A stretch of DNA of 64,000 bases from an uncultured Oscillospiraceae bacterium (GTDB taxonomy: Bacteria > Bacillota > Clostridia > Oscillospirales > Oscillospiraceae), in assembly GCA_947632005.1 (NCBI GenBank), contig CANRNU010000003.1, positions 27,773-91,772 on the forward strand, read 5' to 3'. Shown in pieces: positions 14,036 through 57,991 of the stretch (position 1 is the first letter of the stretch; the number at the start of each line of letters is the position of its first letter). Below the pieces are notes generated by a model. That model made no database searches, had not been told where the DNA came from, and saw nothing but the letters and a program-made list of their open reading frames with translations. The position numbers and the translations under genes were made by a program.

Positions 14036-14737
14036 ATGATGCTGTCCGTTGAAAACATCGACGTCTTTTACGGCGCCATCCATGCCATCAAAGGCATCTC
14101 CTTCCATGTGAACGAGGGCGAAGTGGTGGCCCTGATCGGCGCCAACGGCGCCGGTAAATCCACCACGCTGAAGACTGTCTCCGGCATCATGCATCCCCGC
14201 AACGGCAAGATCACCTTCCTGGACGAGGACATCACCCATACCGACGGCTACAAGCTCCCCGCCAAGGGCCTGGCCCAGGTGCCGGAGGGCCGCCGTATCT
14301 TCCTGCAGATGACCGTCATGGAAAACCTGGAAATGGGCGCGTTCATCCAGAAGAAGGTCCCCCCCGAGGACTATGAGAACGTCTTTACCCACTTCCCCCG
14401 GCTCAAAGAACGCCGCAGCCAGATCGCCGGTACCCTGTCCGGCGGCGAGCAGCAGATGCTGGCCATGGGCCGTGCGCTCATGAGCCATCCCAAGCTGCTG
14501 ATGCTGGATGAGCCCTCCATGGGCTTGGCGCCCATCCTGGTGGAGGAGATCTTCAACATCATCCGGGAATTTCATGCCTCCGGCACCACCATCCTGCTGG
14601 TGGAACAGAACGCCGAGATGGCCCTGCAGATCGCCGATCGGGCCTATGTGCTGGAATCCGGCAAGATCGCCCTGTCCGGCACCGGCAAGGAGCTGGCCGA
14701 GAGCGACGAGATCAAAAAGGCATATCTCGGAGGTTGA
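14036..14737 (+). CDS. livF: Branched-chain amino-acid ABC transporter ATP-binding protein LivF
   Basis: Walker A GANGAGKST, LSGGEQQMLA, Walker B LMLDEPSMGLAP. Confidence 0.95.
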   Translation: MMLSVENIDVFYGAIHAIKGISFHVNEGEVVALIGANGAGKSTTLKTVSGIMHPRNGKITFLDEDITHTDGYKLPAKGLAQVPEGRRIFLQMTVMENLEMGAFIQKKVPPEDYENVFTHFPRLKERRSQIAGTLSGGEQQMLAMGRALMSHPKLLMLDEPSMGLAPILVEEIFNIIREFHASGTTILLVEQNAEMALQIADRAYVLESGKIALSGTGKELAESDEIKKAYLGG

Positions 14738-14780
14738 AAAACAGCATGACCATTTGGTCATGCTGTTTTTCTTTATTTTT
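14737..14780 (+). terminator. Rho-independent terminator of the liv operon
   Basis: AAAAACAGCATGACC / GGTCATGCTGTTTTT stem followed by CTTTATTTTT. Confidence 0.85.
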
Positions 14781-14848
14781 GTTTTGTCGTATGGTAAAAT
14801 GTCCCTACGAATACGGAAAACACGACAGAATTCAAGGAGGGATCAAAC

Positions 14849-15157
14849 ATGGAAGAACTGAAGAAACTGATCGAGCAGCACCCTGAGCTGAAGGAGGCCT
14901 TTGACAAGCTGGTGGAGCTCAAGGGCAAGCTCTCCAAGGCAGATATCGAGGCGTTCCTGAAGGAGCACGGCCTGTCCCTGGACGGCATCACGGAGCTGAC
15001 GGACGACATGCTGGACGACATCAGCGGCGGCATCAGCATGAGAGAATTTGTCAATAAGGCGAAAGACACCGCTGAAAAGGCCATAAAAGCCTCGTCGCCT
15101 CTGATGGGCAGCAAGGCCAGCGCTCTGGGTTCCTTTTTGAACAAGGAGCAGAAATAA
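14849..15157 (+). CDS. Nif11-like leader / double-glycine peptide precursor (putative bacteriocin or RiPP precursor)
   Basis: 102 aa. Has its own extended -10 (TGgTAAAAT, 14792-14800), a strong RBS AAGGAGG (14834-14840) and a terminator. The 61-aa leader is helical and ends ...LTDDMLDDISGG, followed by a 41-aa Lys-rich, Cys-free core. Confidence 0.7.
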   Translation: MEELKKLIEQHPELKEAFDKLVELKGKLSKADIEAFLKEHGLSLDGITELTDDMLDDISGGISMREFVNKAKDTAEKAIKASSPLMGSKASALGSFLNKEQK

Positions 15158-15173
15158 GGACTTCCCGCCCGCC

Positions 15174-15216
15174 AAAAAGGACGCATGGAAAATTCCATGC
15201 GTCCTTTTTGGTTTTT
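15174..15216. terminator. Bidirectional rho-independent terminator between convergent genes
   Basis: AAAAAGGACGCATGGA-AAAT-TCCATGCGTCCTTTTT, with an A-run on one side and a T-run on the other. Confidence 0.85.
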
Positions 15217-15220
15217 GCAG

Positions 15221-16015
15221 TTATGCCAGCAGGACCTTATCGCTCTGGATAGAACTGCCGGATATCTCTGCGAACTTATCCAGCAGGTCCTTCATGGTCA
15301 GGTGCTTTTTCTCCTCCCCTGCCACGTCAAAGATGATCTTTCCCTCATTCATCATGATGAGCCGGTTGCCGTGGGCAATGGCGTCTTTCATATTGTGGGT
15401 CACCATGAACGCAGTCAGGTGATTCTCCCGGATGATGGTGTCGGTGGTATTGAGCACCTTTTCCGCCGTCTTGGGGTCCAGCGCCGCTGTGTGCTCGTCC
15501 AGAAGCAGCAGCTTGGGCTTCTGGAGCGTAGCCATCAGAAGCGTCAGGGCCTGCCGCTGGCCGCCGGAGAGCAGGCCCACCTTGGCCGTCATCCGGTCCT
15601 CCAAACCCAGATCAAGAGTCCTGAGCTGTTCCCTGTACTCATCCTGCTCCTTTTTCGTGATGCCGATGCGCAGCGTGCGGCGGGCACCCCGGCGCTTGGC
15701 CAGGGCCAGATTCTCCTGGATCTCCATGGTAGCGGCGGTGCCGGTCATGGGGTCCTGGAACACCCGGCCCAGGTACTTGGCCCGCTTATACTCCGGCAGA
15801 CCGGTCACATCCTGGCCGTCAATGAGGATGGAGCCGGAGTCGATGGGCCAGACGCCGGCGATGGCGTTCAGGACCGTGGACTTGCCCGCGCCGTTTGAGC
15901 CGATGACCGTAACAAAATCGCCCTCGTTCAGGTGCAGGCTGATGCCGTTCAGGGCGTGCTTCTCGTTCACCGTGCCGGGATTGAAGGTCTTGTAGATGTT
16001 GTTCAGATCAAGCAT
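15221..16015 (-). CDS. ABC transporter ATP-binding protein (COG1101 type, partner of a PF04392 SBP)
   Basis: Walker A GSNGAGKST, LSGGQRQAL, Walker B LLLDEHTAALDP. Sits in an operon with the permease and SBP below. Confidence 0.9.
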   Translation of the reverse strand: MLDLNNIYKTFNPGTVNEKHALNGISLHLNEGDFVTVIGSNGAGKSTVLNAIAGVWPIDSGSILIDGQDVTGLPEYKRAKYLGRVFQDPMTGTAATMEIQENLALAKRRGARRTLRIGITKKEQDEYREQLRTLDLGLEDRMTAKVGLLSGGQRQALTLLMATLQKPKLLLLDEHTAALDPKTAEKVLNTTDTIIRENHLTAFMVTHNMKDAIAHGNRLIMMNEGKIIFDVAGEEKKHLTMKDLLDKFAEISGSSIQSDKVLLA

Positions 16016-28508: not shown

Positions 28509-29069
28509 TTACTCTGTTACTTCAATGATGTTCAGCGCCTGGGCGGTATAATCCGTATTGGACACCACCGTCTCGGTGATCTGGGCCACCTGGGTATCGG
28601 TCAGCCCCTCCACCGGCGCGGGGACCGCCACGGTCACGCCCTCGTCGGAGACGAACACCACGCAGTCGGTGAACTGCTTGGCGAGCAGCTGGTTCTCCAG
28701 CAGGCTCTCCTGCATGTTCCAGCTGGCCATGGCGTTGATCTGCCGCATGGACTCATCCACCACCTCCTGGCTGGTCTCCTCCCCGGCGCACGCCTGCTCC
28801 AGCAGCTGCAGCGCCTCGTCCCGGGAGGACTGACGGGTGAGCCGGGCCTCATCGAAATACGCGGAGACCGCCACGCTGGGCGCCTCTGTCTCCGCCTCAG
28901 CCGCCGTATACTCCTCCTCTGCCGCCGTCATGGCCGCGTCCTCCGCCGCCACCATGGCCGAATCCGCTGTGCCCCAGCGGCTGTTGTAGGACCAGTTCAG
29001 ATACACCGCCGCCCCCACGAACACCAGCACGGCAATGACAACGATATTGCGTTTCAAATTCCTCTTCAA
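28509..29069 (-). CDS. spoIIIAH: Stage III sporulation protein AH
   Basis: N-terminal membrane anchor MKRNLKRNIVVIAVLVFVGAAVYLNW, an acidic linker, and a YscJ/FliF-like C-terminal part. Last gene of the spoIIIA operon. Confidence 0.8.
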   Translation of the reverse strand: MKRNLKRNIVVIAVLVFVGAAVYLNWSYNSRWGTADSAMVAAEDAAMTAAEEEYTAAEAETEAPSVAVSAYFDEARLTRQSSRDEALQLLEQACAGEETSQEVVDESMRQINAMASWNMQESLLENQLLAKQFTDCVVFVSDEGVTVAVPAPVEGLTDTQVAQITETVVSNTDYTAQALNIIEVTE

Positions 29070-29419
29070 GATTCGTCCCTCCAGTTTTCATTCATTTTAT
29101 AAATCGCGATCTTATCTGCGCCCAGCCCGGTATAACACCGCATCGCCTCCGTGATATCCAGCCGCACGGAGACGCTGTCCGCTCCCTGGCATACCACTGC
29201 CGCGCCGTTTTCTGAAAGCAGTACCTCTGAGCGCCCCACCCCTTCCATTGCCGAGAGCAGCTGTTCCAGTCTCGCCTCCTCCGTGACCTCCGGGGCCGTA
29301 TCGGGCCCCTGGGCCCCGCCCGACGGCCAGAGCAGCAGGACCAGGCCCACCGCCGCCACCAGAAGCACATACTTCCAGCGGCCCAACCGCTCCCTGAGCG
29401 CAGCGCCCGCCTCAGTCAT
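29066..29419 (-). CDS. spoIIIAG: Stage III sporulation protein AG (short form)
   Basis: Single TM (WKYVLLVAAVGLVLLLW) plus ...LEQLLSAMEGVGRSEVLL...AVVCQGA...; assigned by position between AF and AH. Confidence 0.65.
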   Translation of the reverse strand: MTEAGAALRERLGRWKYVLLVAAVGLVLLLWPSGGAQGPDTAPEVTEEARLEQLLSAMEGVGRSEVLLSENGAAVVCQGADSVSVRLDITEAMRCYTGLGADKIAIYKMNENWRDES

Positions 29420-29882
29420 CGCTCCTCCACGCCTGCCGTTCGGCAGGGATGCCCAGCTCCGCCTCGATGACGCCCGCCAGCCGGCCGCTGTACGGCGCGT
29501 CCACCGTCACTGCCCAGGGATACCAGAGCAGATCCTCCTCGTCCCACCGGGCCGACAGAGAAACACCCTTTACGTCAAGTCCCGCCTCGGCCGCTTTGGC
29601 TAATATATATGCCTCGCATTTGTCCTCTATGTATGTCCGATCCAGCATTTTTGCCTCCTCCTCTGCCTGCTCTGTGATGACCTCTGCCTGCTGCTCATAC
29701 TGGGCGATGGACGACGCCAGCGTCCCGAAATCCAACCTTACCACAGGCCCCGCCACCGCCAGCGCGCACATGAGCCCACAGGCGAGGCGCAGCACCTGTT
29801 TCACCCTGCCCGGCGGCGTCAGCGCCATGGCGACGGCGGCCAGCAGCGACGCCGCCGTGATGGACAAGACCCACTGCCTCAT
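29412..29882 (-). CDS. spoIIIAF: Stage III sporulation protein AF
   Basis: Two N-terminal TM segments, a conserved C-terminal domain, and operon position. Confidence 0.7.
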   Translation of the reverse strand: MRQWVLSITAASLLAAVAMALTPPGRVKQVLRLACGLMCALAVAGPVVRLDFGTLASSIAQYEQQAEVITEQAEEEAKMLDRTYIEDKCEAYILAKAAEAGLDVKGVSLSARWDEEDLLWYPWAVTVDAPYSGRLAGVIEAELGIPAERQAWRSDD

Positions 29883-30943
29883 CCCGCCAGCATCTCCGCC
29901 GAGAGCACAACGCTCACGAACAGCATGATCCCCGCGCTGCCCACCAGGCCCAGCGCCATGCCGTAGGCCGTGCCGATGTTGCCGACGAGCCCCGCCAGCC
30001 TGCCCTCCGCAAAGGGCTCCGCGATGCAGGCAGCCGCCTTGAACATGAGATAGTGCAGGCCCAGACCCAGCAACGGTCCCACGCAGACGCTCACCACTGC
30101 CGCCAGGCCGAACACCCCCACCGCCCCCCGGACCAGCGCCGCTCCGGCCACATAGGTATCCGCCGCGTCCGCCAGGATGGAGCCCACCACAGGCAGCGCC
30201 GCAGAGATGGCGGATTTGGTAAGGCTCCCCGCCACCTTGTCAGCGTTCCCGGCCACCGCTCCTGTCACCGTAAGGGCAAGGGTGAACACGCTGGTCAGCC
30301 CTGCCAGGAGCGTGGTGCACACCCACCCGATCAGCTTGACCGGCCCGTTCAGCGCCCCGCTAGGCAGCGCCGCGTTGGCGGCGCTGGCGGCGGCATAGGC
30401 GTAGATCACCGGCAGCACGACTTGGGTCCCAGCCGCCATCAGGATGTCCAGGAACATGGCCGAGGCCGCGTACCGGGCGGCTGCCGCCGCGCCGTGTCCT
30501 CCGGCTGCCGCCGCCGCCGTGATGGTCGGCAGGAGCGCCCGGGAGAAATCGGACAGCTCCAGCAGGGCCGTTCTGGCCTGCCCCAGGAAGGAATGCATAT
30601 CCCCCGCGCAGGCGCTCATGACCGCCAGGGCGCCCCCCAGGATCACATATTCCGACGCCTTTCCCTTCTCGCTGAGGGCACTGGCCAGCGAGCACAAAAG
30701 CGTCACCGCCAGCGCCACCGAGGCGCTTCTCGCCGCGGCGGACACCTGCCCGGACAGGACGGACAGGACCCAGGACCAGATCCGCTGCCACAGGCCGCTT
30801 CCGGCGGCGTCGGCCACCGTGGCGCCCCCCAGAATGGCCCGGGCAGACTCCGGCAGTGCCTCCTCCACGCCCTCCGTCTCCGCCGCGAACGCGGGCACGG
30901 GCAGGAGGAGGCAGAAGATCAGCATGACCGCAAGTATCTTCAT
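29879..30943 (-). CDS. spoIIIAE: Stage III sporulation protein AE
   Basis: Start moved to MKILAVMLIFCLLLPVPAFA (ATG 30943, AGGAGAA RBS); polytopic. The 138-codon upstream extension of the track ORF overlaps spoIIIAD/AC and is spurious. Confidence 0.88.
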   Translation of the reverse strand: MKILAVMLIFCLLLPVPAFAAETEGVEEALPESARAILGGATVADAAGSGLWQRIWSWVLSVLSGQVSAAARSASVALAVTLLCSLASALSEKGKASEYVILGGALAVMSACAGDMHSFLGQARTALLELSDFSRALLPTITAAAAAGGHGAAAAARYAASAMFLDILMAAGTQVVLPVIYAYAAASAANAALPSGALNGPVKLIGWVCTTLLAGLTSVFTLALTVTGAVAGNADKVAGSLTKSAISAALPVVGSILADAADTYVAGAALVRGAVGVFGLAAVVSVCVGPLLGLGLHYLMFKAAACIAEPFAEGRLAGLVGNIGTAYGMALGLVGSAGIMLFVSVVLSAEMLAG

Positions 30944-31326
30944 GTCAGTTCTCCTATCATCTGTAAGAGGGAGCGGATGAGAGGGAGCGCCGTCACGATG
31001 GCGCAGGCCGCGCCGCACAGCTCCACCGCCGACGCCACTGCCCCCTGTCCCGCGTCCTTGCAAAGATCCGCGGCCAGGCGCGTCACCACGCCCAGACCCA
31101 CGCATTTGAGCACGGGGCTGACGATGGCCGGGCTCAGGCCCGTCTGCTCCCGGGCCAGGTCGATCACATCCTTGACCTGGACGAACAGCTCCAGTGCCAG
31201 TCCCGCGCCGAAAAGGCAGACCGCCAGGCTCAGCGCCAGCGCCAGCTCCGGCGCGTTTTTCTTCAGCAGCAGCGAGATCAGGGCCCCGGCCAGACCCAGC
31301 GCCGCCGCCTGGACCAGTACCGTCAT
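30940..31326 (-). CDS. spoIIIAD: Stage III sporulation protein AD
   Basis: MTVLVQAAALGLAGALISLLLKK...; 128 aa; ATGA overlap with AE. Confidence 0.9.
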   Translation of the reverse strand: MTVLVQAAALGLAGALISLLLKKNAPELALALSLAVCLFGAGLALELFVQVKDVIDLAREQTGLSPAIVSPVLKCVGLGVVTRLAADLCKDAGQGAVASAVELCGAACAIVTALPLIRSLLQMIGELT

Positions 31327-31520
31327 CCCAGTTCAAACAGACGGCGGATGAGGTCAAACAGCTCCGCGATGCGCTGGACCAATATCACCAGCACCACCAC
31401 CAGTCCCGCGATGGTGGTCATCAGCGCCTGCTCATCCCGGCCGGACCGGGTCAGGAGCAGGTTCAGCACCGCCACCAGGATGCCCACCGCCGCGATTTTG
31501 AATATCAGATCAACATCCAT
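31323..31520 (-). CDS. spoIIIAC: Stage III sporulation protein AC
   Basis: MDVDLIFKIAAVGILVAVLNLLL...; 65 aa, colinear with B. subtilis SpoIIIAC (MGVDVNVIFQIAGVGIVVAF...). Start at ATG 31520 behind GGGGATGGGG. Confidence 0.88.
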   Translation of the reverse strand: MDVDLIFKIAAVGILVAVLNLLLTRSGRDEQALMTTIAGLVVVLVILVQRIAELFDLIRRLFELG

Positions 31521-31544
31521 TGCCCCATCCCCTGTCATCCTTGG

Positions 31545-32042
31545 TCACAAAAGCAGCACCGCCAGCGCCGCCGCCCCGGCGGCGGATATCCCCACCGCCA
31601 TCCGTCCCCGCTCCCGCAGGGCCGTTCGCGCCTCATCCCGGGCCCGCTCCGCCTGCTCCCGGCAGGCGGCCAGGGCGGCGAGCTGCTCCTCTGCCCCATA
31701 CTGGCCCAGCACCTGTCCCAGGGGCGTCAGAAGCTGCCGCTCGGCAGCCGGAAACGCCTTCAGCGCCTCGGACCATATCTCCTCAAAGGGCCGCCGACCC
31801 AGCAGCTCCAGCCCCTCGCTCACCCGGCGGCAAAGGGCGCCGGCCTGGCAGTTCAGCTGTCCCGCCAGCTTCCCGAAGAGCGCCGGCAGAGGCGTGCGGA
31901 ACCGGCCCATCTCAAATTCCATCAGCCCCAGCATCCGGCACAGCTCCTCCCGCAGCGCCGCCCGCTCTCTCAGGCTCCCCGCCGCGCACAGCCCGGCCAG
32001 AACGCCCGCCGCCGTGACCAGGGCCGCTCCCGCTAGGCGCAT
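31545..32042 (-). CDS. spoIIIAB: Stage III sporulation protein AB
   Basis: MRLAGAALVTAAGVLAGL... and a C-terminal TM; start set at ATG 32042, overlapping the end of spoIIIAA. Confidence 0.8.
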   Translation of the reverse strand: MRLAGAALVTAAGVLAGLCAAGSLRERAALREELCRMLGLMEFEMGRFRTPLPALFGKLAGQLNCQAGALCRRVSEGLELLGRRPFEEIWSEALKAFPAAERQLLTPLGQVLGQYGAEEQLAALAACREQAERARDEARTALRERGRMAVGISAAGAAALAVLLL

Positions 32043-32911
32043 GGGAGCTCCTCCACTCCATACCGGCGGACGCCGTTTCGGTTTTCCACCCATATCCGTT
32101 TTTGGAACGCCCCCGCCGCCAGAAGCCTCCGACAGACCGCCCCCGGCGGCTCGTCCCGGCTCCCGTGGGCGGTGGCCAGCAGCCGCACTCCGCCGGCCGC
32201 CGCCTCCAGAAGGGCTGCCGCCTCTTCCTCGCTCCCCACCTCGTCCACCGCCAGGACCTGGGGATTCATGGCCCGCAGCAGCAGCCCCAGCGCCTGGGCC
32301 TTGGGCGCGCCGGTGAGCACGTCCGTGCAGGGCCCCACGTCAAAGGAGGGCGTCCCGGACCATGCGTCCGCGATCTCCCCCCGCTCGTCCGCCGCCGCCA
32401 CCCGCAGCCCGTCCTGACTCAGCCGCCGGACGATCTCCCGCAGGAGCGTGGTCTTGCCGGCCCCCGGCGGGGAGACGATCAGCGCGGAGCGAAAGCCTCC
32501 GGCGGTCAGCGCCGGCCATATGCCGTCGGCGCAGCCTGGCACAGCCCGGGGGATGCGGACGGCGAGAGAGGATATCTCCCGGACGGACTCCATGCCGGTC
32601 TGGGTCCACACCGCCGTGCCGCAGACCCCCACCCGGACGCCCCCGGGAGCGGAGAGAAATCCTCGGCGGAGCTGCTGGCCCGCCGTATGGAGGCTGGCCC
32701 CTGTGGCCGCCTCCAGCACCGCCCGCAGGTCCCGTTCCGTCACTGGCCCGGTCCCCAGGCCGTACTCCCGGCCCGCCAGCAGGGCCGCCGCCTCCCGGCC
32801 CCGGCGCAGCCGAAGTTCCTCGCAAATGCTCCTGCTGTCCCCGTCCAGGGCCAGCAGGCCCCGGCGCAGCCCGTCCGGCAGCAGAGCCGCCGCCGCCAAA
32901 AAACCGTCCAT
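32033..32911 (-). CDS. spoIIIAA: Stage III sporulation protein AA (AAA+ ATPase)
   Basis: Walker A SPPGAGKTTLLRE and Walker B-like LAVDEVG. Start set at ATG 32911 behind GAGGTGAG; the upstream part of the track ORF is AT-richer promoter DNA. Confidence 0.9.
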   Translation of the reverse strand: MDGFLAAAALLPDGLRRGLLALDGDSRSICEELRLRRGREAAALLAGREYGLGTGPVTERDLRAVLEAATGASLHTAGQQLRRGFLSAPGGVRVGVCGTAVWTQTGMESVREISSLAVRIPRAVPGCADGIWPALTAGGFRSALIVSPPGAGKTTLLREIVRRLSQDGLRVAAADERGEIADAWSGTPSFDVGPCTDVLTGAPKAQALGLLLRAMNPQVLAVDEVGSEEEAAALLEAAAGGVRLLATAHGSRDEPPGAVCRRLLAAGAFQKRIWVENRNGVRRYGVEELPCA

Positions 32912-32995
32912 GCTCTCACCTCGGGACAAGTCTATGCGGCCTGTCCCCCGGTCTATGACTGCTCCACTATTCACATACTGTTCACACACAATATG

Positions 32996-33024
32996 TTGAC
33001 ATTGCCCCTGGGATTTGGTAACAT
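32996..33024 (+). promoter_or_regulatory. Sigma-A-like extended -10 promoter for the 33070 gene (divergent from spoIIIA)
   Basis: TTGACA (32996-33001), 17 nt, TGgTAACAT (33016-33024). RBS AAAGGAG at 33055-33061. Confidence 0.5.
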
Positions 33025-33069
33025 ATTTCAGATTATATAGTAGTTTACAGTGAGAAAGGAGCGTGTCCC

Positions 33070-34170
33070 ATGCACCGCACACGCCTCATCGCCTTTCTGG
33101 CCGCGCTGGTCCTCATCCTCTCCCTCACCGTCCCCGCCCTGGCTGACGGGGAGCCGGCGAAAGAAGCTGCCACGTCTGTCTCCTATCAACTGGACGATGC
33201 CCCCAGCGGCTGGATATGCCGTACCGGCGACAAGATTTTTTATATGGACTACCAGCGCGACGGGGATGAAGTGCGGTATTATCTGACCGTGATGGAACCT
33301 GCCCTGGGCGGCTACCGTACCACGCAACTTTTCGAGATGCCCCAGACTACCATTGCGTCATTTCAGGGCCAGATATACCTCTGCTCCTGGAACGGTGACC
33401 GCCAGTGTATCCTCTCTGTCGACCCGGAGACATACCAGCAGACAGAGGTTATTTCCGCCGCGGACGGGGTGCATATCTCCCGCGTCCTGGGCGTGATAGA
33501 CGATAAGCTGTATATCTCCGCTTATGACGAGGGGCAGCCGGACTCCAGTCTTTACATCTATCACATCAACAGCGACAGCACTGTCCAACAGGACGTCTAT
33601 CTGGACGAACAGGGTCTGGAGCAGCTGTTTATGACAGTCCCCTCATTTCTCCCGCACAGACTGAGTCCCGGCTGCGACGGACTGTATGCGCTGACAGACG
33701 AAGGTACACTGCTCCATCTGACCACCTCCTTGGAGTATTTGGATGAGTACATCCTCCCGGATACAACGTTCATTTCCTCTGGCGTATATCTGACCGGTGA
33801 TACGCTGTACGGCCTCTCGCAAGACGGATTCGTCCGCATGAAAGTGGGCGGCTCGGACTATGAGCCCGTCACCCAGCGCATCCAGGAGCAGGGCGTCAGT
33901 GTTTTTGCCATCGACATGGACCAGGACTACCTCTATTTCTGCAATCTGTCGGAGGATGGTTCCGCTATGCTCTATCGGGCAGACGCCGGGACGCTGCAGG
34001 TCCAGCTGATGACCGAGCTGCCACTGGACATCTCCCTGTTCACCGACAACGGCATAGACGCCAGTTCCGTGAAAGCTTACTCCTACAAGCTGGACGAGAG
34101 CCACTTCATGCTCTGGCTGACCAACGCGCAGTTTAATCAGTGGCAGCTGGTCACCCTCCCCTCCCTCTGA
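33070..34170 (+). CDS. Secreted hypothetical protein with repeated hydrophobic-aromatic beta-strand motifs (possible beta-propeller, DUF5050-like)
   Basis: Signal peptide MHRTRLIAFLAALVLILSLTVPALA. Recurring (I/L)(F/Y)(Y/L)...D(G/E) motifs (IFYMDY, IYLCSW, LYISAY, LYALTDEG, LYGLSQDG, LYFCNLSEDG). No catalytic motif recognised. Confidence 0.7.
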   Translation: MHRTRLIAFLAALVLILSLTVPALADGEPAKEAATSVSYQLDDAPSGWICRTGDKIFYMDYQRDGDEVRYYLTVMEPALGGYRTTQLFEMPQTTIASFQGQIYLCSWNGDRQCILSVDPETYQQTEVISAADGVHISRVLGVIDDKLYISAYDEGQPDSSLYIYHINSDSTVQQDVYLDEQGLEQLFMTVPSFLPHRLSPGCDGLYALTDEGTLLHLTTSLEYLDEYILPDTTFISSGVYLTGDTLYGLSQDGFVRMKVGGSDYEPVTQRIQEQGVSVFAIDMDQDYLYFCNLSEDGSAMLYRADAGTLQVQLMTELPLDISLFTDNGIDASSVKAYSYKLDESHFMLWLTNAQFNQWQLVTLPSL

Positions 34171-34242: not shown

Positions 34243-35988
34243 ATGCGTAAGATCCTCACAGGCTATTGGGGGGAGTACAAAAATTCCCTCATCCTGACCC
34301 CCATCTTCGTGCTGCTGGAGACGGTGGTCACCCTGGCCCTGCCCACCCTGATGAGCAACATCGTGGACCAGGGCGTGGCCAACGGTGACCGGCAGTACAT
34401 CATCGTCTGCGGCCTTCTCATGACGGCCCTGGCCATCCTGAGCGTGGTCTCCGGCTATATCAGCACCTGGAACGCCTCCCGGGCGGCCAACGGCTTCGGC
34501 TCCAACCTGCGCCAGGCCATGTACCGGCACATCCAGGAGTTCTCCTTCGCAGACATCGACCGGTTCTCCACCGCCAGCCTCATCACCCGCACCACCAGCG
34601 ACGTGCGCCAGCTGCAGATGGCCGTGCAGATGATGCTGCGCACCTTTATCCAGGCCCCCTTCCAGCTGCTGGTTGCCATGACCATCGTCATCACCTACTC
34701 CTGGCGCCTGGCCCTCATCTACATGGTGGCGGTGCCGGTGCTGTTCATCGGCGTCGTCACAGTGATGACCCTGGTGGATAAGCTCTTCCTCATCGTCCAG
34801 CAGAAGCTGGACGCCATGAACGCGGACATCCAGGAGAATCTGATCGCCATCCGGGTGGTGAAGGCCTTCGTCCGCCAGCGTTACGAGCGGCAGAAGTTCA
34901 AAAAGGCCAACGACGAGCTGACGCGGGCCAACCTGAAGGCGGTGGGCGTGATCATCGCCATGAGCCCCCTGGCCACCATCGTGCTCAACGCGGTCACCCT
35001 GTGCATCTACTGGTTCGGCGGCCGGATGGTGGCCACGGGCCACATCGAATCCGGCCAGCTGCTGGCGGTCATCAGCTATCTGAACCAGATCATGATGAGC
35101 GTGATGATGTTCTCCATGGTGCTCATGCAGTACACCCGCTCCCGGGCCTGCGGCAAGCGCATCGCCGAGGTGCTGGACACGGTGCCGGACATCCAGGACG
35201 GACCGGACGCTCCGGCCCGCACCGTCGCCCCGGACCGCGGGAGCGTGGAGTTCCGGGACGTGTCCTTCCGCTACAAGCGCACCGGCAACGGCGAGGACGT
35301 GCTGAAAAACATCACCTTCTCCGCCGCCCCCGGCGAGACGGTAGCCATCGTGGGCGGCACCGGCTCCGGCAAGTCCAGCCTGGTGAACCTCATCCCCCGG
35401 TTCTACGACGTGACCGCCGGGCAGGTGCTGGTGGACGGCGTGGACGTGCGGGACTACCGCATCGAGGACCTGCGGGCCGCCATCGGCATGGTGCTGCAAA
35501 ATAACGTCCTGTTCTCCGGCACCATCCGGGAGAACATGGCCTGGGGCAATGAGCACGCCACCGACGAGGACATCATCGCCGCGCTGAAAAGTGCCCAGGC
35601 CTGGGATTTCGTCTCCCAGATGCCCGACGGGCTGGACACCTATATCCAGCAGGGCGGTACCAACGTCTCCGGCGGGCAGAAACAGCGGCTGTGCATCGCC
35701 CGGGCCATGCTGAAAAAGCCGGCCATCCTCATTCTGGACGACAGCACCAGCGCCGTGGACTCCGACACGGAAAGCCGCATCCGGGCCAGCTTCTCCCGGG
35801 AACTGAAAGACACCACCGTCTTCATCATCGCCCAGCGCATCTCCTCCGTGGTGAGCGCGGACAAGATCGTAGTCCTGGACGAGGGCCGCGTGGAGAGCGT
35901 AGGCACCCACGCCCAGCTCATGGAGCAGAGCCCCATCTACCGGGACATCTACACTTCACAGGTGGAGGAGGCGCTGTCCAATGGCTGA
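34243..35988 (+). CDS. ABC exporter, fused permease/ATPase, subunit with a degenerate catalytic site
   Basis: 6-TM domain plus NBD: Walker [10 protein letters not shown], signature VSGGQKQR, Walker [13 protein letters not shown] (Asp replaces the catalytic Glu, codons at 35737-35742). Confidence 0.92.
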
Positions 35989-37966
35989 GAAAAAGAGCAT
36001 CTGGGCCCAGCTCAAAGAGCGTCTGGCCGTGGACAATGTGGACGTCAACGACGAGAAGATCTACAAGGACGTGCGCGGCGGCCCCGGCGGCGGTCGGGAC
36101 TTCCGCAGGCCCAAGGACGCCAAGGGCACCCTCATCCGCATCCTGGGCTATGCAGGCCGGCGCAAAGGACTTTTCGTGCTGGTGCTGGTCACCATGCTGA
36201 TCTCCACCGTGTGCACCCTGGCGGCCAGCTATTACCTGCGGCCTCTCATCGACGACTATATCGTCCCCCTCATCACCAGTCCCGAAAAGAACTTCTCCGC
36301 CCTGGCAGGGCAGCTGGGCATTCTGGCGGGCATCTACCTGGCCAGCGCCGTGGCCACGTATTTCACCTCCCGGACCTGCATGACCCTGGCCCAGTGGGCC
36401 ACCAACACCCTGCGCCGGGACCTGTTCTCCGCCCTGCAGGAGCTCCCCATCACCTTCTTTGACGAACACACCCACGGCGAGCTCATGAGCCGGTTCTCCA
36501 ACGACGCAGACAACGTGCAGATGTGCCTGGAACAGGGCATCGTCCAATTCCTGTCCGGCATCATCACCTTTGTGGGCACGGTGGGTCTGATGATCAGCCT
36601 GAGCTGGAAGCTCTTCCTCATCACCCTTCTCACCATCGGTCTTTCCTTCGCCCTGGTGAAGGGGATCGGCCGGTATTCCCGCATCCTGTTCAAAAAGCAG
36701 CAGTCCTCCCTGGGCGCGCTGAACGGCTACATCGAGGAGATGCTGGACGGGCTGAAGGTGGTCAAGGCCTTCAACTACGAGGACCGGGCCAAGCGGGGCT
36801 TTGAGGCGCGCAACGACGAGTACCGGGAAAACGCCATCTTCGCCAACTTCCTGGGCAGCATCATCTTCCCCACCATGAACGCCGTCATGAACATCTGCTA
36901 CGCGGTCACCGCCGTGCTGGGCGGCTTCATGACCGTGGCCGGCTCCTTCACCATCGGCTCTCTGGGGGTGTACCTCAATTACATCCGGCAGGTGACCATG
37001 CCCATCAACATGATGTCGAACCAGGCCATCAACCTGTTCTCCGCCATCGCCGGCGCCGAGCGCATCTTCGCCATCATCGACCATGAGCCGGAGCCGGACG
37101 ACGGCACGGTCAGTCTGGTGACTGTGGACCGGTCTCCGGACGGCACCCTCACCGAGACCGGCCACGGGGAACGCACCGGCTTCTGGGCCTGGAAGATCCC
37201 CCAGGACGACGGGACATATCAGTTCAAGGAGGTCATGGGCAGCGTGCGGCTGGAGAACGTGAACTTCTCCTATGTGCCCGGAAAACCCGTGCTGCGGGAC
37301 TTCACCGTCTGGGCGGACCCGGGGCAGAAGATCGCCTTCGTTGGCTCCACCGGCGCGGGCAAGACCACGGTCACCAACCTCATCAACCGGTTCTACGAGA
37401 TCGACGGCGGCCGTATCCTCTTTGACGGCATCGACGTGAAGGACATCCAGAAGGCCGGCCTGCGCCGGAGCCTGGGCATCGTGCTGCAGGACACCAACCT
37501 CTTCACCGGCACGGTGATGGACAACATCCGCTACGGCAAACTGGACGCCACGGACGAGGAGTGCATCGCCGCGGCCAAGTCCGCCAACGCCCACGGCTTC
37601 ATCACCCGCCTTCCGGACGGATACGATACCATGATTACCGGCAACGGCCAGAATCTGTCCCAGGGCCAGCGGCAGCTGCTGGCCATCGCCCGCACCGCCG
37701 TGGCAAAGCACCCGGTGATGATCCTGGACGAGGCCACCAGCTCCATCGACACCCGCACGGAAAAGCTCATCGACCGGGGCATGGACGCGCTCATGGAGGG
37801 ACGGACGGTGTTTGTCATCGCCCACCGGCTGAGCACGGTCCGCAACGCCCGGGCCATTGTGGTCATCGAGCACGGCCAGATCGTGGAGCGGGGCAGCCAC
37901 GAGGAGCTGTTGGAACAAAAGGGCCGGTATTACATGCTCTATACCGGCCAGAGCGAGCTGGACTGA
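35981..37966 (+). CDS. ABC exporter, fused permease/ATPase, consensus-site subunit
   Basis: Walker [10 protein letters not shown], Walker [12 protein letters not shown], degenerate signature LSQGQ (37655-37669). Overlaps the partner gene by 8 nt. Confidence 0.92.
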
Positions 37967-40509: not shown

Positions 40510-43068
40510 ATGAAGAATATCACCATCGGCGTCCTGGCCCATGTGGACGCCGGGAAGACCACGCTCTCGGAGGGAATGCTGTTCCTGACGGGAAAGATCA
40601 AAAAACTGGGGCGGGTGGACCACCGGGACACGTATCTGGATACCTACGACCTGGAGCGGGCCCGGGGCATCACCATCTTCTCCAAGCAGGCCATCCTGAC
40701 TGCGGGAGAGACCGAGATCACCCTGCTGGACACCCCCGGCCATGTGGACTTCTCCCCGGAGGCGGAGCGGGTGCTGCAGGTCCTGGACTACGCCGTCCTG
40801 GTCATCAGCGGCACGGACGGCGTCCAGGCCCACACCCAGACGCTCTGGCCGCTGCTGGAGCGGTATCACGTCCCCGCCTTCCTGTTCGTCACAAAAATGG
40901 ATGTATCCGGCACGGATGAACGCGCCCTCATGGAGGACATCCAGCGCCGCCTGGGGGAGAGATGTGTGGACTTCTCCGGGGACGCCGCCGCCCGGGACGA
41001 GTCGGTGGCCATGCTGGACGAAGCCGTACTGGACCGATATATGGAGACGGGGGCCGTACCCGACGGGGACATGGTCCGGCTCATCCGCCAGCGGAAGCTG
41101 TTCCCCTGCTATTTCGGTTCGGGGCTGAAACTGGACGGCGTGGAGGAATTTCTCGCCGGGCTGGAGCGATATACGCGCCCCCCTGTCTGCCCCGCCGCTC
41201 CCTTCGCCGCCCGGGTCTACAAGATCGGCCGGGACGGCCAGGGAAACCGCCTGACCTGGCTGAAGGTCACCGGCGGCGAGCTCTCCGTACGCATGCCGGT
41301 GCGGTATCTGCCCCTGAACGACCGGTCCCCTGTGGAGGAAAAGATCAGTCAGATACGGCTATACTCCGGCGTGAAATACGACACCGCGGACCGGCTCCCG
41401 GCGGGCCGGGTCTGCGCCGTCACAGGACTTTCCGGCACCTGGCCGGGTCAGGGCCTGGGGGCGGAGACAGACGGGGACGCGCCCTTTCTTGCTCCCGCCA
41501 TGGGATATCGCATCGTGCTGCCCAAGGGCTGTGACCCCCGGGTGATGCTGCCCAAGCTGAAGCAGCTGGAGGAGGAAGAGCCTCAGCTGCACATCCTGTG
41601 GCAGGAGCCGCTGGGAGAGATCCACGTCCAGCTCATGGGCGCGGTACAGATCGAGGTCCTGAAGAGCCTCATCCGGGAGCGGTTCAACGTGGACGTGGAC
41701 ATCGGCGCCGGGCGGGTCCTGTACCGGGAGACCATCGAGGACACAGTGGAGGGCGTGGGCCATTTCGAGCCCCTGCGCCATTATGCGGAGGTCCACCTGC
41801 TCCTGGAGCCCGGCGAGCCCGGCAGCGGCATCCAGCTGGACACGGTGTGTCCGGAGGACGTGCTGGACAGGAACTGGCAGCGGCTGATCCTGACCCACCT
41901 GGAGGAAAAACAGCATGTGGGCGTGCTCACCGGCTCCCCCCTCACCGATGTGAAGATCACGCTCCTGGCCGGGCGGGCCCATCTGAAGCACACCGAGGGC
42001 GGCGATTTCCGCCAGGCCACCTACCGGGCGGTCCGCCAGGGGCTCATGCAGGCCCGGAGCGTGCTCCTGGAGCCCTGCTATGCCTTCCGGCTGGAGGTCC
42101 CTGCGGCCCAGATCGGCCGGGCCATCACCGACATCCGTGTTATGGGCGGCAGCCATGAGAGCCCTGTCCCAGCCGGAGAGATGACGGTGCTGGAGGGCCT
42201 TGCCCCCGTATCCGCCATGGGAGATTACGCCGCCCAGGTGGCGGCCTATACCGGCGGCCGGGGCCGCTTTTCCTGCCATGTGGCGGGGTATCGCCCCTGC
42301 CACGACGCCGAGTCCGTCATCGCGGCCAGCGGCTATGACCCGGAGGCGGACCTGGAGAACACCCCGGACAGCGTCTTCTGCGCCCATGGCGGCGGCTTCA
42401 CGGTGAAGTGGAACAAGGTCCCCGAGTATATGCACCTGGAGAGCGGTCTCAAGCGTTCCGACCCCTCCCCTGTCCTGGACGCCGCGCCCCAGGTCCGGCG
42501 GCAGAATCTGGACATCGACGAGAAGGAGCTGGAGGCCATCATGCTCCGGGAATTCGGCCCCATCCGCCGCAGGCAATATGCCGCCCCGCAGCTCAACAGC
42601 GCCCTCGGCGTGCAGATGCAGGCCAGGAAGACAAAAGAGCACATCATCGTGGACGGCTACAACGTGATCTTTGCCTGGGACAGCTTGAAGCTCCTGGCCG
42701 GACAGGGGCTGGACCTGGCCCGGGAGAAGCTTTTGGATATGCTGGCCAACTATCAGGGATACACGAAAAATGACCTGGTGGTGGTCTTCGACGCCTACAA
42801 GGTCCCCGGCGGCTCCGGCAGCCGGGACAGCCGCGGCAATATCCATGTTGCCTATACCAAAGAGGGCGAGACGGCGGATATGTACATCGAGCGGCTGGTG
42901 AACGACATCGGCAAAAATGAGACCGTTCGGGTGGTCACCTCCGACAGGCTGGTCCAGCTGGGGGCCTTCCGGTCCGGGGTGCTGCGCACCTCCTCCGGGG
43001 AGTTCAAGGCCGAGGTGGACTGGGTCCTGGAGCAGATCGCCCAGGCGGTGAAGCGGACGCAGATGTGA
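40510..43068 (+). CDS. Translational GTPase (EF-G/Tet(M)-like) fused to a C-terminal Rae1/YacP-type NYN ribonuclease domain
   Basis: G1 AHVDAGKT, G2 RGITI, G3 DTPGH, G4 TKMD; EF-G domain IV/V-like blocks. Residues ~709-852 read IVDGYNVIFAW...VVVFDA...ETADMYIE...VVTSD and are colinear with B. subtilis Rae1/YacP. Confidence 0.85.
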   Translation: MKNITIGVLAHVDAGKTTLSEGMLFLTGKIKKLGRVDHRDTYLDTYDLERARGITIFSKQAILTAGETEITLLDTPGHVDFSPEAERVLQVLDYAVLVISGTDGVQAHTQTLWPLLERYHVPAFLFVTKMDVSGTDERALMEDIQRRLGERCVDFSGDAAARDESVAMLDEAVLDRYMETGAVPDGDMVRLIRQRKLFPCYFGSGLKLDGVEEFLAGLERYTRPPVCPAAPFAARVYKIGRDGQGNRLTWLKVTGGELSVRMPVRYLPLNDRSPVEEKISQIRLYSGVKYDTADRLPAGRVCAVTGLSGTWPGQGLGAETDGDAPFLAPAMGYRIVLPKGCDPRVMLPKLKQLEEEEPQLHILWQEPLGEIHVQLMGAVQIEVLKSLIRERFNVDVDIGAGRVLYRETIEDTVEGVGHFEPLRHYAEVHLLLEPGEPGSGIQLDTVCPEDVLDRNWQRLILTHLEEKQHVGVLTGSPLTDVKITLLAGRAHLKHTEGGDFRQATYRAVRQGLMQARSVLLEPCYAFRLEVPAAQIGRAITDIRVMGGSHESPVPAGEMTVLEGLAPVSAMGDYAAQVAAYTGGRGRFSCHVAGYRPCHDAESVIAASGYDPEADLENTPDSVFCAHGGGFTVKWNKVPEYMHLESGLKRSDPSPVLDAAPQVRRQNLDIDEKELEAIMLREFGPIRRRQYAAPQLNSALGVQMQARKTKEHIIVDGYNVIFAWDSLKLLAGQGLDLAREKLLDMLANYQGYTKNDLVVVFDAYKVPGGSGSRDSRGNIHVAYTKEGETADMYIERLVNDIGKNETVRVVTSDRLVQLGAFRSGVLRTSSGEFKAEVDWVLEQIAQAVKRTQM

Positions 43069-43079
43069 GCTGATCCCCA

Positions 43080-43860
43080 CGTGAGATATACCGCGCTGAT
43101 AAGAGAACGATAGATCGGGATTTGCCTATTTAATATCCTCTACCGATTTCAGTAATTCCGTCTACTACGATTTTATTATCTAAAAAATCAACATCTTTTA
43201 CCAACAGCCTCATTTCCTTTCATCCCTTTGCAATTTGCCAACAAAAACGTATCTAAAATCTTTTTTGCTTCATCGTATTGAACTGTGTTGCTACAACAAA
43301 AATATATTCTCTCTAAATTTTCTTCCAAACTTCGAATTTCACTTTCTAAATTTCTATCATTTTCAAAATACAATGTAGATAGGCTATTCATTAACTCTAC
43401 GATATCAATTTTATGGTTCAGAAAACCATGAATTAAAACTTCTATTCTCTTAATGTGAATCACCTTCTTTTAAAATGGTTTTGGTTTATTTAAGAAATCT
43501 GCCCACATAGTATTACCCATTAACCGATCCACCATATGATGTCTGTCCCAAGCTGCTACTATTTGCTTTTCTTAAATTTATCAAACAGTCCCATACTAAA
43601 GTCCCTTTCATAAATTAAGCATGATTGTTTAACCGCAGTCTGTCCGATGCTTATTATTATACACCCGAATTGTGAAGAAATCTACCGAATACAGCAGTTT
43701 TCCCAGTAATACTACCAGCTGTTTATCATGGGGGCTGTTGTGTTTAGTGTATTATTTTTCAAAAAAGTAAAACATAGAAAACTGTATATTATCGGAATTG
43801 CATTAAGCAGTTTAGTGTTCTATTTTATTTTTCCATGGTAGCGTATCTTCAAAAATTCCC
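43080..43860. other. AT-rich islet (about one third G+C on hand-counted lines, versus ~60-65% in the flanks)
   Basis: Abrupt composition change right after the stop at 43068. Contains one weak 91-codon ORF and several short ORF fragments. No integrase or direct repeats seen. Confidence 0.7.
43188..43463 (-). CDS. Hypothetical small helical protein (possible orphan immunity-type protein)
   Basis: 91 codons, GTG start, AT-rich codon usage unlike the host. A 33-codon ORF fragment ends 6 nt upstream (stop at 43470-43472). No family recognised with certainty. Confidence 0.35.
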   Translation of the reverse strand: MIHIKRIEVLIHGFLNHKIDIVELMNSLSTLYFENDRNLESEIRSLEENLERIYFCCSNTVQYDEAKKILDTFLLANCKGMKGNEAVGKRC

Positions 43861-43867
43861 ATTTGCC

Positions 43868-43998
43868 GCGCCGAAGGCGCACATTATTGACGGCTCCCTT
43901 GTGCAAAGGGAGCTGGCAGCGCGAAGCGCTGACTGAGGGATTGTAACAACCCCTCCGAGCGCCGCAAGCGGCGCCCACCTCCCCTTGCACAGGGGAGG
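43868..43998. repeat. Array of six consecutive short GC-rich hairpins (candidate REP/MITE-like element or structured leader)
   Basis: Hairpins at 43868-43880 (GCGCC-GAA-GGCGC), 43891-43915, 43917-43931 (CAGCGC-GAA-GCGCTG), 43935-43955, 43959-43974 (GCGCCG-CAAG-CGGCGC) and 43978-43998 (CCTCCCCT-TGCAC-AGGGGAGG). Confidence 0.6.
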
Positions 43999-44052
43999 CT
44001 TTGAACTGGCGATGACTTCCCTGTCAGAGCGGTGTTAAGAGAGAAAAGCAAG

Positions 44053-47800: not shown

Positions 47801-48349
47801 ATTGGCGACAACGATATCCCGCAGGCCCGTGTCGCGGAAGACCCCCTCGCTGACCCTTACGACGCTGTCCGGCAGTTCGACGCTCGTCAGCGCGGCACAG
47901 CCGCTGAAAGCATAGGCGCCGACAGCCGTCACACCGCTGTCGATGACCACGTTTCTGATCCGGGCCCTGTACACATACCAGGGCTGGCCGCTGCCCTCGG
48001 GAGCGGAGTCGGGGCGGTATTCTGCCATCGCCCCATGCCCGGAGATACGCAGGGTCCCGTCGGAAAAGGACCAGGCTACATCGCCCGTCGTGCCCGATGT
48101 TCCGGCGTCCGTCCCAGACCCCGGCATGGCGCTGCCGGACCCGGTCTCCTCCGCCGGCTCCACCAGCTGCTCTGCATCGCTGGACACCGCCGTCACAGCA
48201 GCCGGCGCCTCTTCAGCGGGCGCAGCCGCCTCCACGGACTGACTCGCTTCGGCGGGCACTTCCGGGCCGTCGTCAGCCGCAAACACCGGGACCAACAGCG
48301 AAAGCACTGTCAATACCGCCAGCAGCAAGCTCAAACACCGCTTCTCCAT
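44876..48349 (-). CDS. Secreted multidomain cell-wall hydrolase: signal peptide, BspA-type leucine-rich repeats, 8 Ig/FN3-like repeats, C-terminal N-acetylmuramoyl-L-alanine amidase (Amidase_2)
   Basis: MEKRCLSLLLAVLTVLSLLVPVFA; LRR-like AFSGCAALTSVELPDSVVRVSEGVFRDTGL; eight ~87-aa repeats (..GV(T/K)V.W..V.GA.KYR(V/L)F(Y/L)K...); C-terminal ...ITIHCTAE...ITIEVA...HRDYANKSCPG. Confidence 0.88.
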   Translation of the reverse strand: MEKRCLSLLLAVLTVLSLLVPVFAADDGPEVPAEASQSVEAAAPAEEAPAAVTAVSSDAEQLVEPAEETGSGSAMPGSGTDAGTSGTTGDVAWSFSDGTLRISGHGAMAEYRPDSAPEGSGQPWYVYRARIRNVVIDSGVTAVGAYAFSGCAALTSVELPDSVVRVSEGVFRDTGLRDIVVANAACAIRGDASSLGRPGVTIIHGCAGSAVQSYALAYGYQFAAIPGTVASPDKSGTAPAPEASTGTDAVPAPEDDGAASDAGVEAAAASETDAASVPDAQALPVPDAPELIGVTSAATGVTISWNSFPGAVKYRVFYKIGDGGWTKIADTTKTSYTWTKAKAGTEYTFTVRCVSKSGKSYTSNFDPVGVSYKLLATPSVTVTGGVDKVTVSWGTVSGAAKYRVFLKNGKNWETLADVAETSYTMAAASGKSYTFTVRCLDETGDYASGYNTKGKSIAYISTPVLSGVSSAATGVTVTWGKVPGAVKYRVFYKIGNGGWKKIADTTKTSYTWTKAKAGTEYTYTVRCVSKTGKSYTSNYDPVGVSYKLLAMPSVTVTGGVDKVTVSWGAVSGAAKYRVFLKTSKGWETLADVTETSYTMAAASGKSYTFTVRCLDETGDYASGYNTKGKSIAYISTPVLSGVSPAATGVTVTWGKVPGAVKYRVFYKIGDGGWKKIADTTKTSYTWTKAKAGTEYTYTVRCISKSGKSYTSNYDLVGVSYKLLATPAVSVAHGTDSVTVSWGAVSGAVKYRVFLKTSKGWETLADVSGTSYTMAAASGKSYTFTVRCIDAAGNYTSGYNTAGKTITFVEQPAISGVEAASSGVTVKWGKVSGAVKYRLFYKSGSGWTKIADTTKTSYTWSGAKSGTEYTFTVRCVSSDGKSFTSAYDQTGVRFCYVAAPTLTKVANVSGGFKLTWSAVGGAAKYRIYYQMDSGAWSQLAETGQTSYTMTGADSKAKYAFAVQAVSQTGTASVRSNTWKTMVFTNSPLVAYTRISPNRDKDRKNVIDTITIHCTAELWSVEKLGESFSPVSRKASSNYGIGTDGRVGMFVEEKDCSWCSSNRDNDNRAITIEVASGTSEPYAVTDEVYAVMIDLVTDICQRNGIEKLVWSTSKNERVNHLNGCNMTVHRDYANKSCPGTYLYERMGKIAAEVNARLAS
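45405..47480 (-). repeat. Coding tandem repeat, 522-bp unit (two ~87-aa domains) x ~4
   Basis: 46219-46598 versus 46741-47120 aligned by eye: 27 mismatches in 380 nt, with an exact run of more than 70 nt. The outer units are more diverged. Confidence 0.9.
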
Positions 48350-48523
48350 AGCTTTTTCCTTCCCTTGGCAACCAAGATGGCATGTTTTAATATTTACATA
48401 TTAGTTCTCTATGGCCTTTTTGTCAACAACATAACGATCATCCCCCGCTGCATCGCCTGGCCGGCGGAGGATTTTTTCTGCGCTGGCCGTATCATTTTCA
48501 GGTCCTGTGCACAAACTAGCCCC

Positions 48524-57726: not shown

Positions 57727-57739
57727 TTAAATAAATACA

Positions 57740-57938: not shown

Positions 57939-57991
57939 CATATATTGAGAAAGCGTATGAGGACAAGCACCTACTGGAAAGGAGAAATGCA

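Follow-up and report, generated by a model that had tools for sequence, protein, structure and literature searches.

How far does the resemblance of a small protein to the precursors of exported peptides reach, when the gene that encodes it lies between two transporter operons of a core genome? The question is raised by a 102-codon open reading frame (ORF) in a stretch of 64,000 nucleotides from an uncultured Oscillospiraceae bacterium (GenBank assembly GCA_947632005.1, contig CANRNU010000003.1, positions 27,773 to 91,772), the whole of which is referred to here as the window. A sequence-only reading of this stretch had proposed that the ORF encodes a Nif11-type leader ending in a double glycine and followed by a cleavable core peptide. 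The ORF, its 102-amino-acid product, which is identical to the translation quoted in that reading, and the expression signals listed there were all verified in the sequence. Assignment to the Nif11 family was not upheld. We tentatively read the product as an orphan double-glycine peptide precursor of an undescribed leader family, which would be cleaved and exported in trans, and place this reading at rather less than an even chance.

The double-glycine motif and the protein that carries it

The 102-codon ORF is a real gene under purifying selection. Between the window gene and its 85%-identical relative P0002 (locus L017) the ratio of nonsynonymous to synonymous substitution rates (dN/dS) was 0.134 at a dS of 0.585, with regional values of 0.078 for the N-terminal domain (residues 1-45) and 0.130 for the tail. 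Conservation in related genomes, which the sequence-only reading had proposed as a check, was found in that the ORF is intact in at least seven distinct lineages, in each of which it is preceded by a GGAGG ribosome-binding site and followed by a strong hairpin. The GC content at the three codon positions (0.55/0.30/0.79) is as in the neighbouring genes.

It has been shown that the C39 peptidase domain recognises hydrophobic residues at positions -4, -7, -12 and -15 of an amphipathic helix (PMC7018657, PMC6363468), with Gly at -2 and Gly, Ala or Ser at -1 (PMC7018657), and a 13-position logo has been published in which positions 1, 4 and 6 are acidic, 2 and 7 are Leu, 3 is Ser or Thr, 10 is Val or Leu and 12-13 are GG (PMC2887384). 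The window protein carries I58 (-4), L55 (-7), L50 (-12) and I47 (-15) ahead of G60-G61, the codons of which were confirmed at 15026-15031. Residues 49-61 (E-L-T-D-D-M-L-D-D-I-S-G-G) fit six of the seven logo features, the exception being position 6, where M54 is not acidic. A relaxed double-glycine-leader pattern picked out this ORF alone among the 276 small six-frame ORFs of the window, and no other real ORF of this kind was found in the window or the retrieved loci. The curated double-glycine leader model TIGR01847 scored 14.2-14.3 bits, against a cutoff of 15.7 bits, on three close relatives (P0002, P0003 and P0004), with the match covering residues 48/49-61 and ending exactly at the double glycine; the reported E of 0.05 over 18,950 models corresponds to approximately 3e-6 per protein for this one pre-specified model. 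The same segment was matched by two further, independent models, NF038167 (17-19.3 bits) and TIGR04495 (13.8-16.8 bits, the lower value being that of the window protein, residues 49-69), the cutoffs of which are 32 or 33 bits. Taken as a pre-specified hypothesis, a double-glycine leader is strongly suggested by the motif. The earlier claim of a double-glycine precursor therefore stands as far as residues 47-61 fit the published recognition rules, although the cutoffs of the curated leader models are not reached. No Sec signal or transmembrane segment was found in the 102-amino-acid product, and export would therefore need a dedicated transporter.

Alignment of the family brought together 14 members, eight of them long forms of 102-108 amino acids, including the window protein, and six of them short or acidic forms of 77-105 amino acids. 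All eight long forms, which come from at least five lineages, have the double glycine at residues 60-61, I or V at -4 and L at both -7 and -12, and position -15 is hydrophobic in six; their consensus over residues 49-61 is E-L-[TAS]-[DE]-D-x-L-[DE]-x-[IV]-x-G-G. Identity among the long forms is 72% over residues 1-45, 62% over residues 46-61 and 34% from residue 62 to the end, and the charge changes from between -8 and -11 in the N-terminal part to between +2 and +5 in the tail. For the window protein, the predicted fragment of residues 1-61 has an average mass of 6825.7 Da and a net charge of -8. The 41-residue tail is cationic and free of Cys as had been described, with a net charge of +4, a pI of 9.9, an average mass of 4413.1 Da, seven Ser/Thr and seven Lys; Cys is absent from every member of the family. 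Residues 64-81 form a predicted amphipathic helix with a hydrophobic moment of 0.60, a value reached by 17 of 2000 shuffles, and the tail ends in a conserved C-terminal motif (LGSFLNK).

The N-terminal domain shows a mean pairwise identity of 69% over the 14 members and of 64% between long and short forms, and no Pfam or NCBIfam family matches it. The AlphaFold2 (AF2) model is all-helical with a mean predicted local distance difference test (pLDDT) score of 59.7. It places helices at residues 2-10, 12-25 and 30-39 of this domain (pLDDT 60-70) and a further helix at residues 52-58 at low confidence. A Foldseek search of the PDB with this model gave nothing at E<=0.001, the best value being 5.3, and a sequence-profile search of the PDB returned only EF-hand-like and other noise (E>=0.005). 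A likeness of 'KGKLSKEDIEAFLKEHG' to the exiting helix of an EF-hand was dropped, the calcium-binding Asp ligands being absent.

In the six short or acidic forms the site of the motif reads LLNKGK, LLGGK, LLGGGK, LLSGK (as in P0009) or L(F/I)GEGK. Besides the source MAG of the window, the long form is carried by assembly GCA_947631865.1 and by the MAG to which contig CANQKA010000060.1 belongs, and forms without the double glycine by GCA_947629245.1 and the MAG of contig CANQIH010000071.1. One variant among them (P0010, and L012 5042-5359) has an acidic (-3) 45-residue tail of EGKEG(L/V)xK(L/V)-like amphipathic repeats without a double glycine, and keeps the N-terminal domain and a C-terminal GLGKLFKK. 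As a separate observation, this variant gave a weak match to the sll1863 stress-protein model (E 0.02).

The family is a very small one and had not been described before. A word-indexed search of 5.8 billion clusters gave 10 proteins, and an exhaustive search with a profile against 1.84 billion representatives gave only three family clusters, together with four matches (P0013-P0016; tetratricopeptide-like or other repeat proteins of 447-1073 amino acids) that were judged to be low-complexity helical noise. Among 185,579 species-representative genomes the gene was found in four uncultured Oscillospiraceae metagenome-assembled genomes (MAGs), all four of which belong to the same rabbit ('Lapin') project. 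One further match, in the cyanobacterial locus L013, had the appearance of a link to Nif11 but proved spurious, the word EQHPELKE lying inside a 486-amino-acid sugar transferase. Paralogous precursors, for which the sequence-only reading had suggested a search, were found neither in the window nor in any retrieved locus, and there is a single copy per locus and a single locus per species-representative genome. No source gives the protein a name, and literature searches returned zero papers on the family's sequence strings and nothing on double-glycine peptides of Oscillospiraceae.

Comparison with known leader families

The Nif11 leaders (N11P; TIGR03798, a subset of PF07862), which include those of the ProcA prochlorosins and LahA1-9, are the system with which the protein had been identified. 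The likeness is one of layout. Both have a helical acidic leader of about 60 residues ending in ...EL(S/T)D(D/E)xL(D/E)x(V/I)xGG, the preceding 'xDI/VxAxxKxxGxSx' helix is in register, and identity falls past the double glycine as in Nif11 precursors, though the tail here keeps its C-terminal motif. TIGR03798 and PF07862 gave no match at E<=10 (NCBIfam) to the window protein or to any of the 14 members. When the family profile was compared by hhalign with a narrow Nif11 profile, built from 22 PF07862-annotated Prochlorococcus and Synechococcus leaders, the probability was 2.6% (E 0.018), with a colinear alignment of residues 30-63 against 27-66 (ADIEAFLKEHGLSL...ELTDDMLDDISGG against ADVVAIAKAAGFSI...NLSDDELEGVAGG). 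Pairwise BLASTP against a Nif11 leader gave 32% identity over 47 amino acids with an E of 5e-4 for the single comparison, and no Nif11 protein was recovered by the profile search of the 1.84 billion representatives. Nif11 precursor genes may lie far from their enzymes and transporters, Cys, Gly and Ser abound in their cores, and the precursors occur in paralogous families (PMC2887384). In contrast, the tail here is Cys-free and not of low complexity, there is no paralogous expansion, and LanM, the cyclodehydratase of thiazole/oxazole-modified microcins (TOMM) and the TIGR03794/6/7 transport genes are absent from the 64 kb and from the other genomic contexts. The layout appears Nif11-like, and membership of the family is not demonstrated.

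The leaders of class II bacteriocins and peptide pheromones offer a second comparison. The window protein resembles them in the double glycine, in the hydrophobic register and in the placement of acidic, Leu and Ser/Thr residues. Like them it has no Sec signal, and its acidic leader stands ahead of a cationic, amphipathic cargo of some 40 residues; in close relatives TIGR01847 scores near threshold. It differs in that class II leaders are typically 15-30 residues long, whereas the leader here would be 61 residues with an extra conserved domain of 45 residues; in that the gene is a single-copy core-genome gene with no adjacent PCAT (an ATP-binding cassette (ABC) exporter with a C39 peptidase domain), immunity or accessory gene; and in that there are sister forms without the double glycine and scores below the curated cutoff. 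Residues of approximately 47-67 also align to the double-glycine-leader portion of the models for CTB bacteriocins (NF038167) and XyeA triceptide precursors (TIGR04495). The scores of 13.8-19.3 bits are far under the cutoffs, however, and the protein has neither a Gly-rich core nor a radical S-adenosylmethionine (radical-SAM) partner; these matches reflect the shared leader motif only.

Exported peptide or intracellular protein

In the reading that we tentatively prefer, the 102-amino-acid product would be made in the cytoplasm, where the acidic residues 1-61 would mask the cationic amphipathic tail. The hydrophobic groove that a C39 peptidase domain offers would take up I58, L55, L50 and I47 of the helix ITELTDDMLDDISGG, the domain being part of a PCAT encoded elsewhere in the genome. 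This exporter would cut after G61 and export a linear, probably unmodified peptide of 41 residues (4413 Da), which may act on membranes in the manner of a bacteriocin or serve as a signal. Orphan double-glycine peptides and promiscuous PCATs have been documented (PMC7018657). That the genome encodes a PCAT, that cleavage and export take place and that the tail is active we infer from the sequence, and export of the peptide seems plausible.

Several observations weigh against this. The window protein itself is not reported by TIGR01847, the relatives that are reported fall below its cutoff, and the scores of every other leader model are likewise under their curated cutoffs. PCATs can normally recognise their substrates without the residues that lie more than 18 positions from the cut (PMC7018657), yet residues 1-45, too far from the double glycine for C39 recognition, are the most conserved part of the protein; they would call for some further partner outside the proposed mechanism, whether a modifying enzyme, a regulator or something in a chaperone-like role. 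The short or acidic forms have neither a conserved double glycine nor the hydrophobic pattern at -12 and -15 and are conserved nonetheless. P0006, P0009 and P0010/L012 lack the combination of Gly at -2 with Gly, Ala or Ser at -1, and another short form, P0007, is encoded at the orthologous locus. An LGxLFxK-like C-terminal motif is common to forms with and without the double glycine, and this suggests that the N-terminal domain and the C-terminus work in one polypeptide. The family is small, and in at least five species the gene has been inherited vertically, as a single copy, within one and the same core-genome neighbourhood, with native codon usage; such a setting is unlike typical accessory bacteriocin loci or the paralogous expansions of Nif11 precursors. 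Pfam annotation of the window proteins bore out the earlier statement that the 64 kb hold no PCAT, lanthipeptide, radical-SAM maturase or immunity gene, since no C39, LanM, LanB, LanC, radical-SAM or YcaO gene was found, and no gene for a C39-ABC, for immunity or for a maturase was found in contexts of 10-20 kb in four other species. At 34243-37966 the exporter pair was confirmed to consist of ABC_membrane and ABC_tran domains only, without a Peptidase_C39 domain. Neither a PCAT nor a small membrane immunity-like ORF, as would mark a class II bacteriocin locus, lies adjacent to the gene, the neighbours of which are two ABC importers, TyrRS and RecN.

The lack of processing genes, the core synteny, the relatives without a double glycine and the conservation of residues 1-45 make an uncleaved intracellular protein a serious and close rival, to which we give a slightly lower chance than to export. 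Such a protein would have an acidic three-helix N-terminal domain, a flexible acidic linker and a basic amphipathic C-terminal helix (LGxFLxK); this last helix, which may be similar in style to the amphipathic helices at the C-termini of MinD or FtsA, may target the membrane or bind a partner, and the double glycine of the long forms may be merely part of the linker. The N-terminal domain and the C-terminal motif are family-wide where the double glycine is not, purifying selection acts on both the domain (0.08) and the tail (0.13), and the acidic EGKEG-repeat tail of P0010/L012 is unlike an antimicrobial cargo. However, an uncleaved protein leaves to coincidence an invariant match of 13-15 residues to the double-glycine consensus in eight of eight long forms, with its per-protein expectation of ~3e-6 for a model that it nearly satisfies, and leaves unexplained both the halving of identity exactly at the double glycine and the reversal of charge. 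The AF2 model gives no fold of high confidence, and Pfam, NCBIfam, the PDB profile search and Foldseek yielded no homologous domain whose intracellular function is known.

The two accounts may also be stages of one history. A leader may be in the course of being born at one orthologous locus, where an intracellular protein without the double glycine would have gained a C39-type double-glycine helix and a cationic tail in the long-form lineage; a core-genome protein would so have become an exported peptide, and the N-terminal domain would retain its original binding function. We consider this unlikely. On a small scale and still open to view, it would parallel the way in which Nif11 and nitrile hydratase were exapted as the N11P and NHLP leaders (PMC2887384).

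Less probable again is that the product is the precursor of a peptide that is synthesised ribosomally and modified after translation (RiPP), with residues 1-45 recognised by a distant and possibly new enzyme that would modify Ser, Thr, Lys, Asp or Glu residues of the tail before cleavage at the double glycine and export. A long conserved N-terminal part is typical of leaders read by maturases (PMC2887384, PMC6363468), similarity falls past the double glycine, the Ser, Thr and Lys residues of the tail would offer sites, and the likeness to the Nif11 layout is colinear and in register. The absence of any maturase from the 64 kb and the four other contexts, the lack of Cys, the single copy without paralogous expansion and the failure of every RiPP leader model to reach its cutoff all speak against it, as does the tail, where an amphipathic helix of the ordinary kind and a conserved motif at the C-terminus take the place of a hypervariable or low-complexity core.

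A role for the protein in the neighbouring Liv-type branched-chain amino-acid ABC importer, as a small accessory or regulatory subunit, is very improbable. In six of seven loci the gene does follow livF immediately and in the same orientation, and in three of them (L014, L018 and L010) the gap of 36-41 nt without a terminator makes co-transcription likely; but in the window, L017 and L012 there is a terminator together with a promoter between the two genes, L005 keeps the gene without an upstream Liv operon, and the adjacency may be plain inherited synteny. No Liv system is known to contain such a subunit, which also counts against this role. Lastly, the suggestion of a chance ORF without function in a GC-rich intergenic region, where long antisense ORFs of 141 and 110 amino acids are also present as is usual in such DNA, is effectively refuted by the dN/dS of 0.13 at a dS of 0.59 and by conservation across lineages with a ribosome-binding site and terminator in each, and codon-position GC content like that of real genes also speaks against it.

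The locus, its surroundings and what the gene may mean

Table 1. Positions in the window of the 102-codon gene, its expression signals and the parts of its product.
Feature	Position	Strand	Remarks
Coding sequence of 102 codons, including stop codon	14849..15157	+	ATG 14849, stop 15155-15157; read directly
Ribosome-binding site AAGGAGG	14834..14840	+	8 nt 5' of the ATG; read directly
Putative extended -10 element TGgTAAAAT	14792..14800	+	read directly
Weak -35 element TTTATT	14772-14777	+	
Intrinsic terminator ending the Liv-type ABC importer operon that lies upstream	14736..14771	+	16-pair stem, then T-run
Downstream hairpin and U-run	15171..15216	.	stem part 15171-15212, 19-bp perfect, A5/U5 at both stem ends
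Residues 1-45, acidic N-terminal helical domain HPELKEAxDKLVELKGKLSxxDIxAFLKEH	14849..14983	+	most conserved part
Residues 47-61, ITELTDDMLDDISGG, double-glycine-leader-like motif	14987..15031	+	I-15 L-12 L-7 I-4 G-2 G-1
Residues 62-102, Cys-free tail of 41 residues, putative cargo peptide ISMREF...NKEQK	15032..15154	+	

The expression signals of the gene are collected in Table 1. The GGAGG core of the ribosome-binding site is present in all orthologues. A promoter ahead of the gene is plausible from the sequence, and the putative -10 element is kept in L017 (tatggtaaaat) and L012 (tgtgttaaaat; TGtTAAAAT); no site was called by a consensus promoter scan of the locus because the -35 element is weak. 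L017 has the same upstream terminator hairpin as the window. The long-stem downstream hairpin has a dG of -35 kcal/mol (z = -7.3) and was equalled in stability by none of 200 shuffles. It is probably a bidirectional terminator common to the convergent ABC ATPase gene (15221-16015, minus strand), and a strong hairpin stands 3' of the gene in seven of seven orthologous loci. An Rfam scan of the locus returned only sub-threshold hairpin noise, and no riboswitch or leader RNA.

The gene had been described as its own transcription unit, and in the window's genome it is monocistronic, the terminator and the putative promoter both being present. In the window (14737-14849), L017 and L012 it is parted from livF by a spacer of 111-152 nt that contains both signals. 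In L014 (9959-10001), L018 (91-128) and L010 (451-490), on the other hand, the gene begins 36-41 nt past livF with no terminator and is probably operonic with it. A transcription unit of its own is therefore not a conserved trait.

The two flanking ABC importer operons were found as described. The 5' neighbour is a five-gene Liv-type ABC importer in the window, L010, L012 and L014, and on the 3' side in the window, L005 and L010 there follow a convergent ABC importer (with a PF04392 binding protein in the window), TyrRS and RecN, with ArgR past RecN in the window and L005. The gene order is Liv ABC operon, gene, second ABC importer, TyrRS, RecN. Pfam annotation of 38 further window proteins indicates a core-genome stretch of a spore-former, with iPGM/TIM/PGK, three ABC importers, TyrRS, RecN, ArgR, NAD kinase, DXS, XseA, NusB, SpoIIIAA, SpoIIIAH, SpoVAC and Tex. 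A spoIIIA operon is indicated at 28512-33082 on the minus strand (SpoIIIAH 28512-29069, SpoIIIAA 32036-33082) and SpoVAC lies at 49559-49927, from which it follows that the source organism is a spore-former; plus-strand ORFs at 30053-32313 have no Pfam match and are probably antisense shadows of the spoIIIA genes.

Other features of the window were noted in passing. A cyclic di-AMP (c-di-AMP) riboswitch occupies 57733-57859 on the plus strand (RF00379, E 1.3e-11, with 60.7 bits where the gathering score is 38), directly 5' of a gene of the sodium:solute symporter family (57878-59407). An 852-amino-acid EF-G/TetM-like translational GTPase (GTP_EFTU, EFG_III, EFG_IV and EFG_C domains) encoded at 40510-43065 on the plus strand also has a C-terminal YacP-like NYN nuclease domain at residues 712-851; this may reflect an uncommon fusion, or the ORF call may have run two genes together. 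At 44879-48349 on the minus strand a predicted wall-associated protein of 1157 amino acids combines BspA-type leucine-rich repeats, five fn3 domains, a GH85 C-terminal domain and an N-acetylmuramoyl-L-alanine amidase domain. Two segments, 43069-44031 (963 nt) and 48607-49323 (717 nt), contain no convincing ORF of high third-position GC content and no Rfam match at the gathering score, and a 370-amino-acid minus-strand ORF at 48404-49513 has no Pfam match.

The immediate impact is limited, given the very small size of the family and its known occurrence in rabbit-gut MAGs only. If the protein proves to be uncleaved, a motif-perfect double-glycine 'leader' in an intracellular protein would be a caution for the mining of class II bacteriocins by leader motif only. 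If the long form is cleaved and exported it would represent a new leader family for double-glycine peptides, with the unusual traits of an extra conserved domain of 45 residues, a single-copy core-genome site and orthologues without the cleavage site. This would bear on the assignment of orphan double-glycine peptides to transporters (PMC7018657) and on the origin of long leaders from standalone proteins (PMC2887384), and an uncultured gut clade would have yielded, in the Cys-free, cationic amphipathic peptide of 41 residues, a candidate for an antimicrobial or a signal.

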